Assembly (NCBI GenBank): GCA_964586255.1
Contig: CAZPGE010000006.1
Span: 1 to 61,826, forward strand
Origin: an uncultured Candidatus Saccharibacteria bacterium
GTDB lineage: Bacteria > Patescibacteriota > Minisyncoccia > Phycocordibacterales > UBA2100
DNA length: 61,826 nt
Direction: 5' to 3'
Both the position numbers and the translations under genes were made by a program. The notes below the pieces were generated by a model, which ran no database searches, had not been told where the DNA came from, and worked only from the letters and a program-made list of their open reading frames with translations. How positions within the stretch are numbered: the stretch's first letter is position 1; each line of letters begins with the position of its first letter. This document shows, one piece after another, positions 5,652 to 53,056 of this stretch.

Positions 5652-5767
5652 ACGTTTGAACGATAATCGGACTTTAACCGTTGCGGCACAGTGGAGGAAT
5701 TTCACCCCTCTTCCTATTCGCCGTTTCTATTTTGGCGAATTCCCGCTTTCGCGAGACAGTCAAACGT
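5652..5767 (-). ncRNA. Cobalamin riboswitch aptamer (compact, short-P6 type)
   Basis: Minus strand AGGAA-GAGGGGTGAAATTCCTC-CACTGTGCCGCAACGGT-TAAAGTCCGA matches the GGGAA / GGTGNAANTCC / CTG..GCAACNGT / AAGYCNG core. An 8-bp closing stem ACGTTTGA/TCAAACGT brackets it, and it lies upstream of DUF4430 genes. Confidence 0.9.
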
Positions 5768-49534: not shown

Positions 49535-49924
49535 ATAAGACTTTCACTTTTTTGGAGCTCGCACCCGTCCTCCGCCATGCGCCTTTGGTGCCCCATTTAG
49601 GGGCACTTTTGCGTAGGCGGGTGCGAGCTCCAAAAAAACGAAGGGGGTCGGGGAAACTGTAGTTTCCCCGTGTAGGAATGTCTTGAAAACCGAGAGGTTT
49701 TCAAAGCAAAGCTTTTTGCGTGCTCGCACCCGTCCTCCGCAATGCGCCTTTGGTAATGCAAAAGGTTGCTCCGGACGGGTGCGAGTCAGCTCGCCCTATG
49801 GCTTTGTTCGCCCGCCTGCTGGCGGACTCACATGCGCATTTCGCTTCGCGAACCGGATGAAAAGCGGTCAACCACTTTTCATTCCTCCGCCATGCGCCTT
49901 TGGCACCCTTAATGGGTGCTTTTA
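49500..49924. repeat. Four copies of a ~20-bp motif CCTCCGCMATRCGCCYTT embedded in hairpin modules
   Basis: Direct copies at 49569-49588, 49734-49753 and 49884-49903; inverted copy at ~49500-49520. 20-bp IR 49548-49567/49618-49637; 13-bp IR 49723-49735/49773-49785. Confidence 0.85.
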
Positions 49925-50207
49925 CATTTCGGTGTGCGGGCGACAAAAAAGAATGTACTGATGTATTCACGAGCTATTTGGAGCGTCACGCTGTATTAAG
50001 AAACTTGAGAGAGACTCTTAAGTGAAAACTCGCTCACATAATATTTCTCAACTCTTTTTTCTCGTTTAAAAAATAAAAAAGTTATCCACATTATTTAAAC
50101 GAAAAACAATTTATTGCGAGCGTGAGTGTAATAATAAATTAAACGCTGTAGCGTTTCGCGCGCGAAGCGAAGGTCGAGTTTAATACTCACAATCATTTAT
50201 AACCACC

Positions 50208-50276
50208 ATGGCAAAGGCAAAAAAGAAGAAGGCCACAAAGAAGAAGACGGCCAAGAAGGCAAAGAAACACCGATAG
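50208..50276 (+). CDS. 22-aa Lys/Ala-rich micropeptide MAKAKKKKATKKKTAKKAKKHR
   Basis: ATG..TAG open frame with an A/T-rich leader, repeated AAG codons and its own terminator; below the ORF-track size cut-off. Confidence 0.7.
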   Translation: MAKAKKKKATKKKTAKKAKKHR

Positions 50277-50289
50277 TATCGGTGTCTAG

Positions 50290-50315
50290 AAAAGACCTCC
50301 GCAAGGAGGTCTTTT
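50290..50315 (+). terminator. Intrinsic (potentially bidirectional) terminator
   Basis: AAAAGACCTCC-GCAA-GGAGGTCTTTT. Confidence 0.88.
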
Positions 50316-50530
50316 CGTTTTCTTTCGCTACCGAAGCGTAGCTTCGGCATCGCTTGTTGAGAGAAAACGAAAAGACGGCCGGAGACGGGGCCCCACCTAA
50401 ATGGGGAGGCGAGGCGGGGCCTGCGCGCGTTCGCAAGTGCGAACGACGTGTGGGCCTTTTCTTTTGATGCCTGAAATATCGCTAGTTCGCGTCAATGGAA
50501 TCAAAGAGACGCGGGTGGTAGGATACGTGG

Positions 50531-53056
50531 ATGTCATTTTGGAAAGGATTATTCGGCGACGCGAACGTTGCGGCGCTCAAAAAGGCGCGGCCTATTGTCG
50601 CGGCAGTCAATGCTCTAGAGCCCGATTTCAAGGTTCTCTCCGACGAGGATCTGAGGGCCAAGACCAGTGAGTTTAAAGGGCGGCTTGCAGGAGGCGAGAC
50701 GCTCGAAGACCTAGCGCCGGAGGCTTTTGCGGCTGTTCGCGAAGCCTCGCGCCGCACCCTCGGACAGCGCCATTTCGACGTGCAGCTCATCGGCGGCATG
50801 ATATTGCACAACGGCGACATCGCCGAGATGCGCACCGGTGAAGGTAAGACACTCGTCGCCACGCTTCCGGCGTATCTCAATGCGCTCAGCGGCAAAGGTG
50901 TACACGTGGTTACCGTCAACGATTACCTCTCGCGTCGTGATGCGTCGTGGATGGGGCAGATATACCATGCGCTCGGCCTTACGGTGGGAGTGCTCAACCA
51001 CGAGTCCTCGTTTATCTATGACCCGTCGCATGTACCGGAGGAGCTCAAGCAAGAAGAGGAGGATCTGCAGGACAAAGAGGGAGGTTTCAAGGTCATGCAC
51101 GACTTCCTGAAGCCTTGTACGCGCAAAGAAGCGTATGCGGCCGATATTACCTACGGGACGAACAACGAATACGGATTTGACTATCTGCGCGATAATCTCG
51201 AGTACGAGAGTGCCAACCTTCGTCAGAGATTGCCACAAGACGGTGGCTACAATTTTGCCATTGTCGATGAAATTGACTCGATTCTTATCGACGAGGCGCG
51301 CACCCCGCTCATTATTTCTGCTCCGGTAGCTGATGCTGAGGCTCTGTACGGGCGCTTTGCGACTATCGCCCGTACGATGGTCAGAGAAGAGGACTTTACT
51401 GTGGACGAGAAGCACAAACAGATCATAATGACCGATGCTGGCATAGAAAAGGCCCAAGACGCGCTCGGCATAGACAATATATACACAGATGCCGGCATTA
51501 AGATGGTGCACCACCTTGAGACTGCAGTGCGGGCGAAGGCGATTTTCGAGCGTGACAAGGATTATGTAGTCAAAGATGGTGCCGTCGTCATTGTCGACGA
51601 ATTCACGGGCCGGCTTCAGCCAGGTCGCAGATGGTCAGAGGGGCTTCATCAGGCGATCGAGGCAAAGGAAGATGTCGCCGTTCAGCAGGAATCGAGGACC
51701 TTCGCGTCCATCACATTCCAAAACTATTTCAGGCTCTACGGCAAGCTTGCGGGCATGACGGGTACAGCAGCCACTTCCTCCGAGGAGTTCTACAAAGTGT
51801 ATGGCCTCAACACTGTGAGTGTGCCTACCAACAACCCCGCACAGAGATCTGACCTCGACGACCTTATTCTCCAGACCGAGAACGGAAAGATGCGTGCCAT
51901 CGCAAAGCGGGTACGGGATTTGCATGAAAAAGGACAGCCAGTCCTTATCGGTACGGTTTCAGTCGAGAAGAACGAACTTCTTGGAGCGTATTTTAAGCAG
52001 GAAGGTATCCCGCACGAAGTACTCAATGCGAAGAACCATGAGCGAGAGGGCGAGATAATCGCGCAGGCGGGTCGTAAAGGCGCTGTCACTATAGCGACGA
52101 ACATGGCTGGTCGCGGAGTCGATATCAAGCTCGGTGGTAACCCGGGCACACCTGAGGAGTACGAAGACGTGAAATCTCTCGGTGGTCTTTTTGTGCTCGG
52201 CACAGAGAGGCACGAAGCTCGTCGTATCGACAACCAATTGCGTGGTCGCTCTGGCCGCCAAGGTGATCCTGGTGCGACGCAGTTTTACGTTTCCCTCGAA
52301 GACTCCCTCATGCGCGTGTTTGCCTCTGATGTCATCAAGAGGGTAATGGGGACGTTTAACATTCCCGAAGATGAGCCGATCTACAATTCGATGATTACGC
52401 GTGCGCTCGAAAAAGCACAGACCCGAATCGAGGAGATAAATTTCGATGCACGAAAACATGTTCTCTCGTACGACGATGTACTCAACATCCAGCGCCAGAG
52501 TATTTACGCGCGCCGTCGAGCACTGCTCACAGGGGGTGAGGAAGCGGTGGAAAGTGAACTCGAGAGACTTGCCGCCGCGGACGAATCATTTACCGCAGAT
52601 ATTGCCAAGAAAAAAGAGCAGCTTGGAAACGTGTTCATTCCAACTGTTCGTAGAATATTGCTACAGGGTATCGACTTCCTCTGGGTTGAGCATCTCGAGG
52701 CGATGGAGTACCTTCGTTCAAGTGTGAATCTGCGCGCATATGGTCAGCGTGACCCGCTCGTCGAGTATAAGAAAGAAGGACTGAAATTATTCCAAACGAT
52801 GGAGGAGACGTACGCTACTCACGTTCGTTCTCTTATACCAAATATTGTGAGTACTCCCGGCGCGCAAACATCTTCGCCTCAGCAGCGCTCAGTAACCAAA
52901 GCAGTCGCGTCGATCACGGCGACGTCCGACACTCCGTTAAAGAAAGAATATGGTCGCAATGATAAAGTCGTCATATCGAATGGCACCGATACGAAAGAAA
53001 TGAAATACAAAAAAGCGGAGCAGCTACTTTCGGAGGGCTGGCGCATCGTTGGGTAG
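50531..53056 (+). CDS. secA: Preprotein translocase ATPase SecA
   Basis: EMRTGEGKT, VVTVNDYL, IVDEIDSILIDEARTPLIIS, KLAGMTGTA, IATNMAGRGVDI and RIDNQLRGRSGRQGDPG. Confidence 0.98.
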   Translation: MSFWKGLFGDANVAALKKARPIVAAVNALEPDFKVLSDEDLRAKTSEFKGRLAGGETLEDLAPEAFAAVREASRRTLGQRHFDVQLIGGMILHNGDIAEMRTGEGKTLVATLPAYLNALSGKGVHVVTVNDYLSRRDASWMGQIYHALGLTVGVLNHESSFIYDPSHVPEELKQEEEDLQDKEGGFKVMHDFLKPCTRKEAYAADITYGTNNEYGFDYLRDNLEYESANLRQRLPQDGGYNFAIVDEIDSILIDEARTPLIISAPVADAEALYGRFATIARTMVREEDFTVDEKHKQIIMTDAGIEKAQDALGIDNIYTDAGIKMVHHLETAVRAKAIFERDKDYVVKDGAVVIVDEFTGRLQPGRRWSEGLHQAIEAKEDVAVQQESRTFASITFQNYFRLYGKLAGMTGTAATSSEEFYKVYGLNTVSVPTNNPAQRSDLDDLILQTENGKMRAIAKRVRDLHEKGQPVLIGTVSVEKNELLGAYFKQEGIPHEVLNAKNHEREGEIIAQAGRKGAVTIATNMAGRGVDIKLGGNPGTPEEYEDVKSLGGLFVLGTERHEARRIDNQLRGRSGRQGDPGATQFYVSLEDSLMRVFASDVIKRVMGTFNIPEDEPIYNSMITRALEKAQTRIEEINFDARKHVLSYDDVLNIQRQSIYARRRALLTGGEEAVESELERLAAADESFTADIAKKKEQLGNVFIPTVRRILLQGIDFLWVEHLEAMEYLRSSVNLRAYGQRDPLVEYKKEGLKLFQTMEETYATHVRSLIPNIVSTPGAQTSSPQQRSVTKAVASITATSDTPLKKEYGRNDKVVISNGTDTKEMKYKKAEQLLSEGWRIVG

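Follow-up and report, generated by a model that had tools for sequence, protein, structure and literature searches.

A conserved lysine-rich microgene headed by a DnaA box upstream of secA in a class of Patescibacteria

We analysed a stretch of 61,826 nucleotides (nt), hereafter the window, which comprises positions 1 to 61,826 of the forward strand of contig CAZPGE010000006.1 (GenBank assembly GCA_964586255.1) from an uncultured Candidatus Saccharibacteria bacterium, and focused on a short open reading frame (ORF) located upstream of secA. This ORF comprises 22 codons followed by TAG, encodes the highly basic peptide MAKAKKKKATKKKTAKKAKKHR of ~2.4 kDa, which yields no useful tryptic fragments, and is present as a single copy in the 861-kb genome. 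Comparative analyses, in which the named relatives are Paceibacterota, Adlerbacteria, and Vogelbacteria, indicate that it is very probably a real translated gene (hereafter the microgene), whose reading frame recurs from the genus to other orders and which is headed by a DnaA box and a promoter and followed by its own intrinsic terminator. As for its function, we tentatively favour a DnaA-linked peptide that may serve as a counter-ion or compaction agent for DNA.

A preliminary description of this locus had proposed a micropeptide gene, strongly basic in its product and provided with its own terminator, and the comparative evidence supports this core proposal well. On translation, the predicted peptide was recovered with 12 lysines and no acidic residue, although five residue types (A, K, T, H, and R), and not six, follow the initial methionine. 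The leader had rightly been described as AT-rich, which holds for the 30 nt preceding the ATG, and G+C content is about 33-35% over positions 49900-50200 compared with approximately 53% nearby. The strong terminator that had been placed 13 nt after the stop codon was also identified, its stem beginning at the 13th base past the stop, and secA indeed lies downstream, with its start at 50531.

Searching positions 50100-50540 at the DNA level against 40 relatives gave matches in 14 other genomes, 12 of which span the leader or the ORF. All of these 12 carry an ORF that starts with ATGGCA and encodes 14-27 residues of K and A with a little T, G, or S, mostly terminating in Arg or Lys; downstream of the ORFs found in this way there is a GC hairpin and then a T run. 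When a degenerate (IUPAC) pattern over the first 13 codons was used, 40 of the 151 genomes of the order were matched, as against 6 for a reversed pattern serving as control, and 65 of the 301 genomes of the class. Nearly all of the K/R-rich matches inspected are short ORFs with terminators, and the remaining matches correspond to K-rich N-termini of ordinary proteins. An unbiased sample was obtained by anchoring on SecA in 120 genomes of the class, in 106 of which up to 2.5 kb of sequence 5' of secA could be read: a family ORF (12-106 aa) is found in 31 of these 106 loci, with a terminator no more than 70 nt away in 28. All of these prevalence figures are lower bounds, covering the secA neighbourhood or one strict pattern.

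Altogether, 82 unique ORFs were gathered over the class (12-114 aa, median 23), with an overall composition of 50% K, 20% A, 12% R, 8% T, 3% V, and 3% P. Their N-termini are mostly MAK, MAA, or MAT and their C-termini mostly R or K, and nearly all of them are free of acidic residues. Within the genus and among near relatives, the ORFs are 14-28 aa long, with a mean column identity of 60% and many indels, and homology of such low-complexity peptides rests on the shared promoter, leader, and synteny rather than on the peptide sequence. Conventional homology searches returned little. A six-frame hidden Markov model search with the peptide alignment recovered the query alone, its pre-filter being unable to seed on short low-complexity peptides; a protein-database search with a 40-aa member gave no matches, and the same search with a 114-aa relative gave a few low-complexity matches without names. 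No description of the microgene, and no ribosome structure or proteome of Paceibacteria, was found in the literature.

The same position 5' of secA is occupied in three loci (L055, L213, and L187) by K/R/A/P repeat proteins of 64-114 aa, such as the protein at 241-585 of L055 (Patescibacteria SAG AM-311-L09), which reads like MATKRKTARKPAKRK...RRRK. This shows that the products encoded at one position grade from a 12-aa peptide into an H1-like protein. When compared with the HC2 family (PF07382), the 114-aa relative from L055 scored 20.9 bits against a cut-off of 40 and a 42-aa form scored 7.5 bits, and no match was obtained for the 22-32-aa forms. Outside the candidate phyla radiation (CPR), no comparable ORF was detected before secA in the loci located by a SecA scan of contigs. 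In 377 genomes of other Patescibacteria classes, 11 of the 15 inspected pattern matches are short poly-K ORFs with terminators; these stand-alone poly-K/A micro-ORFs (14-45 aa; L275-L283, L286, and L287) have a DnaA box in 1 of 7 cases and GGTCG in 0 of 7, none lies near secA or hpf, and they may be analogues of independent origin rather than homologues. Separately, K/T/A-rich N-terminal extensions are carried by many nucleic-acid-handling proteins of the class, including RpoD, RecA, DnaB-like, uS9, uS10, and bL21, as seen in loci L020, L025, L029, L034, L042, L044, L141-L143, L145, and L146, and polybasic tails seem to be a habit of this lineage.

Substitution patterns argue that the ORF is translated. 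In five independent pairs of equal length, the differences at codon positions 1, 2, and 3 number 7, 13, and 25 (chi-square p 0.004), and a comparison of synonymous with nonsynonymous changes, which the preliminary description had called for, gave 18 synonymous against 15 nonsynonymous codon changes where 20% synonymous is expected (p 1e-5). Composition follows a strict 3-nt periodicity, the second position of the codon being occupied by C and the third by the variable base, and in the alignment of relatives the ATG and the in-frame stop are kept, the latter beside terminal Arg codons. TGA serves as the stop codon in none of the 82 ORFs compared with 26% genome-wide (p 3e-11), and the ratio of AAG to AAA is 120:23 at the genus level compared with 54:46 genome-wide. 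The preference for AAG limits the occurrence of long A runs, on which ribosomes are known to slip. The start codon is preceded by a spacer that lacks a Shine-Dalgarno (SD) sequence, which is no objection to translation because the 3' end of 16S rRNA in this genome (contig C11, ...GGATTCATTCC) is devoid of the CCUCC anti-SD and SD-like 4-mers are rare, occurring at 12% of genome starts. The genome-wide start signal is T-15 G-14 T-12 A-11 T-7 (TGnTAnnnT, -15 to -7), which is typical of leaderless mRNAs.

The same observations bear on whether the locus might specify a non-coding or dual-function small RNA (sRNA) of ~185 nt, whose purine-rich (AAG/GCA) tract and GGUCG would act as RNA while the ORF is incidental. 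Such a view would account for the promoter, 5' hairpin, and intrinsic terminator, which together resemble an sRNA gene in size and architecture, and for the conserved 5' GGUCG, which a purely coding model does not explain; moreover, purine tracts are stop-free in any frame, and DnaA-box-driven sRNAs may exist in two other loci (L259 and L273). However, it is difficult to reconcile with the bias at the third codon position, the synonymous excess, the strict periodicity, the conserved ATG and in-frame stop, and the avoidance of TGA, and no complement of GGTCG (CGACC) was found in the neighbouring RNA region. We therefore consider an sRNA in place of a coding gene to be decidedly improbable.

An alignment of 47 loci anchored on a shared 9-mer revealed a common upstream layout, namely aAGTTATCCACA, ~17 nt, TTGnnn, ~17 nt, and GATAAT, followed after 7-8 nt by (A)GGTCG, a variable AU-rich stretch, and the ATG. 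The -10 element takes the form TGnAATAAT in the genus of the window and GATAAT elsewhere, and transcription is predicted to start near it. In the window the 9-mer reads TTATCCACA, which is a canonical strong DnaA box. Of 50 family loci, 36 have a perfect box in the same (+) orientation, and the majority of the remainder are one mismatch off. In the class sample, a perfect box no more than 300 nt upstream accompanies the ORF in 23 of 31 loci, compared with 4 of the 75 loci without the ORF that have one anywhere in the region read (Fisher p 8e-13); the whole genome contains 10 perfect boxes. As would be expected of a DnaA regulon member, this consensus 9-mer is conserved in position and orientation and is specific to the microgene. 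Its distance to the -10 element is constant (~40 nt) across families, and a site centred near -50 with such spacing looks like a transcription-factor site. DnaA is predicted to bind at the box, where it may either activate or repress transcription.

A perfect DnaA box within an AT-rich island of ~260 bp might also suggest a replication origin at or beside the locus, or a site for DnaA titration, with the microgene as a passenger. This is very improbable, considering that there is one conserved box and no cluster, that cumulative GC skew climbs steadily over the contig with no switch, that the flanking genes are co-oriented, that dnaA is located on a different contig in this genome and is separated from the locus by 370 kb in a closed single-contig relative of 837 kb, and that the constant spacing between the box and the -10 is that of a promoter element. 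Contig C2 (positions 1518-1546, at the contig start) carries two perfect DnaA boxes 20 nt apart plus a third near-box and would be a better oriC candidate than the microgene locus, although dnaA lies on C4. DnaA boxes were also observed at several other sites. Where the microgene is absent, as in L180 and L192, a perfect box precedes the genes pdaD (pyruvoyl arginine decarboxylase), hpf, and secA, and in L203 boxes precede hpf and speH (S-adenosylmethionine [AdoMet] decarboxylase), and this type of promoter may thus also serve polyamine and hibernation genes. In L259 and L273, a DnaA box ~500 nt 5' of the microgene is followed immediately by near-consensus promoter elements (TTGACA/TTTGAC, 17 nt, and TATACT/TATAAA) and then by an untranslatable stretch of ~70 nt with a terminator, which suggests a small RNA driven by a DnaA-box promoter.

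A short motif of the leader, (G)GTCG, is conserved class-wide. In 47 of 49 loci it lies no more than 140 nt 5' of the ATG, and in the class sample 26 of the 31 loci have GGTCG no more than 170 nt 5' of the ATG. In other families (L022, L032, L057, L135, and L136) GGTCG directly follows the -10 at a distance of 7-8 nt, and the motif therefore probably coincides with the mRNA 5' terminus or lies close to it. Five copies of GGTCGA-N2-3-TTA occur in the genome, and that of the microgene is the sole copy behind a promoter and a leader. We considered whether GGTCG might pair with adjacent small RNAs or the 3' terminus of 16S rRNA and rejected this, as no CGACC complement is present nearby and the 16S tail has the sequence GGATTCATTCC; the likeness of (A)GGTCG to 16S AAGUCGUAAC is a 4-nt overlap, which is not significant. 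All genus-level leaders also fold into a hairpin with a closing stem of CGC(W)...(W)GCG and a variable interior, the fourth pair of which covaries (CGCA/TGCG versus CGCT/AGCG). This hairpin is confined to the genus and near relatives and is missing where GGTCG directly follows the -10; RNAalifold predicted no structure on the leader alignment, in which the hairpin interior does not align. No family match was obtained in an Rfam scan of the microgene region. At the other end of the unit, 80 of the 86 family loci carry a terminator-like hairpin and T run no more than 70 nt past the stop, and in the window a G+C-rich stem-loop with a T run stands directly 3' of the gene, as is usual for an intrinsic terminator (Table 1).

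Synteny with secA, which the preliminary description had named as a check, was also examined. In the order of the window, 16 of 18 inspected loci place the microgene immediately 5' of secA. Other orders have the microgene followed by hpf and secA, sometimes with pdaD or speH in between. The downstream neighbour may be secA, hpf, speH, or none of them, and stand-alone copies are found in L012 and L026. Other CPR loci, like the window, have an equivalent element of the type TGnTAnnAT at 6-9 nt 5' of secA, and secA appears to be leaderless. Thus, considering its own terminator at a variable distance from the stop, the separate -10 of secA, a second terminator in between, the varied downstream gene, and the stand-alone copies, we regard the microgene as an autonomous unit and not as a secA leader.

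These data also allow a cis-acting role to be weighed, in which transcription past the terminator into hpf, pdaD, or secA would be tuned by translation of a poly-Lys upstream ORF (uORF), much as in leader-peptide attenuators of the trpL type. A terminator immediately 3' of the ORF and the strong synteny with secA are in line with such attenuation, as is the presence in some lineages of a DnaA-box promoter that heads microORF-hpf-pdaD-secA, or precedes pdaD in loci that lack the ORF; with polyamine genes in the cluster, a poly-Lys sensor would make sense. However, the distance from the stop to the stem ranges from 2 to 69 nt, which is not the fixed geometry of an attenuator, no conserved alternative antiterminator pairing was found in relatives or in leader folds, and in the window secA has its own -10 and two terminators intervene. 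The variety of downstream genes, the stand-alone copies (also in other classes), the bias towards AAG, which speaks for the importance of making the product accurately, and the versions of 106-114 aa, which are implausible as leader peptides, point in the same direction, and an attenuator is in our view improbable. A further idea, that the peptide replaces polyamine synthesis, was rejected, as in the class sample pdaD or speH occurs nearby in ~14% of loci both with and without the micro-ORF, revealing no complementarity; in the genome of the window itself, tblastn detected no pdaD or speH homologues.

Table 1. Positions of the microgene and associated elements in the window
Feature	Position	Strand	Basis or remark
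DnaA box TTATCCACA (consensus aAGTTATCCACA)	50082..50090	+	~39-40 nt 5' of the -10
Extended -10 TGTAATAAT	50127..50135	+	near-invariant in alignment A1
5' leader hairpin closed by CGCT/AGCG	50144..50169	+	single-sequence folds
Leader motif GGTCGA	50172..50177	+	conserved across the class
AU-rich spacer without SD before the start codon	50178..50207	+	sequence, relatives
Microgene, 22 codons and TAG, MAKAKKKKATKKKTAKKAKKHR	50208..50276	+	ORF list, relatives, codon-position bias
Small hairpin CACCGAT-AGT-ATCGGTG over the last codons and stop	50268..50284	+	fold; unconserved in relatives
Intrinsic terminator: perfect 12-bp stem (50289-50316), 4-nt GCAA loop, T-rich tail GTTTTCTTTC	50289..50326	+	fold
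Structured insert, lineage-specific	50317..50465	+	fold z-score -6.5
Extended -10-like element of secA TGGTAGGAT	50516..50524	+	6 nt before the secA ATG, leaderless-type start

From these results we propose a unit consisting, in order, of a DnaA box, a promoter, a short structured leader with GGTCG, an AU-rich start without SD, and a 22-codon ORF closed by an intrinsic terminator; the encoded peptide would be an unstructured or helical polycation. Selection targets charge, composition, and termini rather than length or exact sequence. Because it is charge and composition that are conserved, the peptide may be a generic counter-ion or condensing agent for nucleic acids, a minimal analogue of a protamine or an H1 tail. 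The consensus box, which throughout the class stands at a constant spacing 5' of the promoter, makes it probable that production of the peptide is linked to DnaA status, and the polycation would thereby be supplied for DNA in step with replication. DNA rather than rRNA is favoured as the binding target because of the DnaA box and the continuum to long forms resembling H1 and HC2, and this choice we infer from sequence features. A Sec-secreted or host-directed peptide was considered and rejected, as no hydrophobic signal segment is present.

A peptide of this size and charge might alternatively be a lineage-specific small ribosomal or rRNA-bound component, like bS22/eL41/mS38, bL37, or bTHX, which would fill an rRNA pocket or replace lost protein or rRNA mass of the reduced CPR ribosome. 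Its size, charge, and unannotated status match those of bS22, a protein with 61% K/R that was found in Borrelia by cryo-electron microscopy only (PMC10618245), and CPR ribosomes are without uL30, often without uL1 or bL9, and in Parcubacteria carry an A/K-rich uS19 tail of ~25 aa (PMC9297842). The position of the microgene directly upstream of hpf in other orders would be consistent with this role, and stops restricted to TAA and TAG together with the AAG bias would suit a well-expressed translation gene. On the other hand, no match was obtained for four family peptides against NCBIfam and Pfam models (E<=10) or for a profile from alignment A2 against PDB chains (E<=10). Besides, the length ranges from 12 to 114 aa and the sequence is free even within the genus, whereas bS22 is near-invariant in Borrelia, differing at one residue across that genus (PMC10618245). 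A sequence-tolerant polycation would seem to fit such variation better than a peptide fitted to a single rRNA pocket. We know of no DnaA-box promoter as a feature of ribosomal protein genes, and linkage of hpf and secA is common in other bacteria, so that the adjacency to hpf may reflect an inherited gene order rather than a functional link. Taken together, a ribosomal role appears rather unlikely but is the most serious alternative to a DNA counter-ion.

Several points weigh against a DnaA-linked DNA counter-ion as well. To neutralise an appreciable part of a 0.86-Mb chromosome, a 22-aa peptide with a charge of ~+14 would be needed in very large amounts, and the same chemistry would bind rRNA equally well. 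A/K-rich extensions are found on uS19 of Parcubacteria (PMC9297842), and the microgene often stands beside hpf. In addition, the box is a candidate DnaA site and not proof of regulation, 8 of the 31 sampled loci are without a perfect box, and the conserved GGTCG motif of the leader is not explained by a DnaA-controlled polycation.

A broader hypothesis, which we consider rather unlikely, is that Paceibacteria possess a replication-coupled, gene-encoded polycation, in which a DnaA-controlled promoter would drive synthesis of polylysine/alanine peptides of 12-30 residues by which DNA is neutralised and compacted. Such an arrangement would suit cells that are too small and metabolically too poor for polyamines and large chromatin proteins, and would be a bacterial counterpart of the supply of S-phase histones or protamines. 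DnaA-box promoters of this type would likewise stand ahead of pdaD, speH, and hpf in sister lineages, and together these genes would form a DnaA regulon for charge balance.

With regard to the remaining features of the locus, the small hairpin over the last codons is probably incidental. The structured insert between the terminator and secA lies outside the conserved unit: it is missing in most relatives, in which secA follows ~50-100 nt past the terminator, and the earlier suggestion that the peptide could be a ligand for this neighbouring structured RNA is thus unsupported. An 18-nt inverted repeat (50309-50326/50359-50376) reuses the terminator tail, the insert bears GC-rich hairpins and a second terminator-like hairpin with a T run at ~50417-50465, and positions 50365-50429 match a different contig of a relative (G003) at 82%. 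The insert might represent a mobile module serving as terminator or spacer, or else a small RNA. Elsewhere in the window, positions 5658-5726 (minus strand) match the AdoCbl-II (cobalamin) riboswitch aptamer with 37.6 bits compared with an Rfam gathering threshold of 36.5.

CPR/Patescibacteria represent a large share of bacterial diversity, and the organisation of DNA and ribosomes in their tiny cells is almost unknown. The microgene is too short for standard gene callers and is likely to be missed by annotation, yet it is among the better conserved features of its neighbourhood class-wide and provides a first candidate member of a DnaA regulon in the phylum. If it encodes a DnaA-controlled DNA counter-ion, it would be the shortest known chromatin-type protein and would provide a new link between replication initiation and chromosome charge balance; if it is ribosomal, a CPR-specific ribosomal protein would be added. 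Either way, its clean anatomy (box, promoter, leader motif, ORF, and terminator) offers a concrete target in the few cultured Paceibacteria.

Among known systems, the family resembles bS22/eL41/mS38 (and also bL37 and bTHX) in its length of 20-35 aa, in exceeding 55% K/R, in being usually missed by annotation, and in being likely helical on RNA. However, it matches no model or chain, its composition is far simpler (K/A/T/R only), its length spans 12-114 aa without the fixed length and conserved sequence that characterise bS22, bL37, bTHX, and eL41, and it has a DnaA-box promoter. As a low-complexity polycation rich in K/A(/P/T), the peptide has the composition of chlamydial Hc1/Hc2 (PF07382), AlgP, and the Lys-rich tails of actinobacterial HU. 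H1-like nucleoproteins of this kind are expected to condense DNA, and the members of 106-114 aa resemble HC2 repeats. The family differs from HC2 in a score that remains below the threshold, in the lack of any match for the 22-aa form, and in having no folded domain; the majority of members fall short of every described nucleoid protein by a factor of 5-10, and no developmental cycle is known here. With respect to regulation, a parallel is offered by Sda of Bacillus subtilis, a small gene with consensus DnaA boxes upstream of its core promoter, which links an effector to replication status, although the product of Sda is an unrelated, folded kinase inhibitor, and in the microgene there is a single box at ~-50 and regulation is predicted from sequence. 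A short ORF upstream of secA, or in some relatives of pdaD/speH, recalls SecM-secA, SpeFL-speF, and the MAGDIS uORF of AdoMet decarboxylase, from which the microgene is distinguished by its own terminator at variable spacing, a separate promoter for secA, the absence of a signal sequence or arrest motif, and an inconstant downstream gene. Finally, like protamines and polyamines, the peptide is small, highly charged, and tolerant in sequence, and in a minority of loci the microgene is clustered with arginine decarboxylase and AdoMet decarboxylase genes in relatives; unlike them, it is gene-encoded and Lys-based, being neither Arg-based nor a metabolite.

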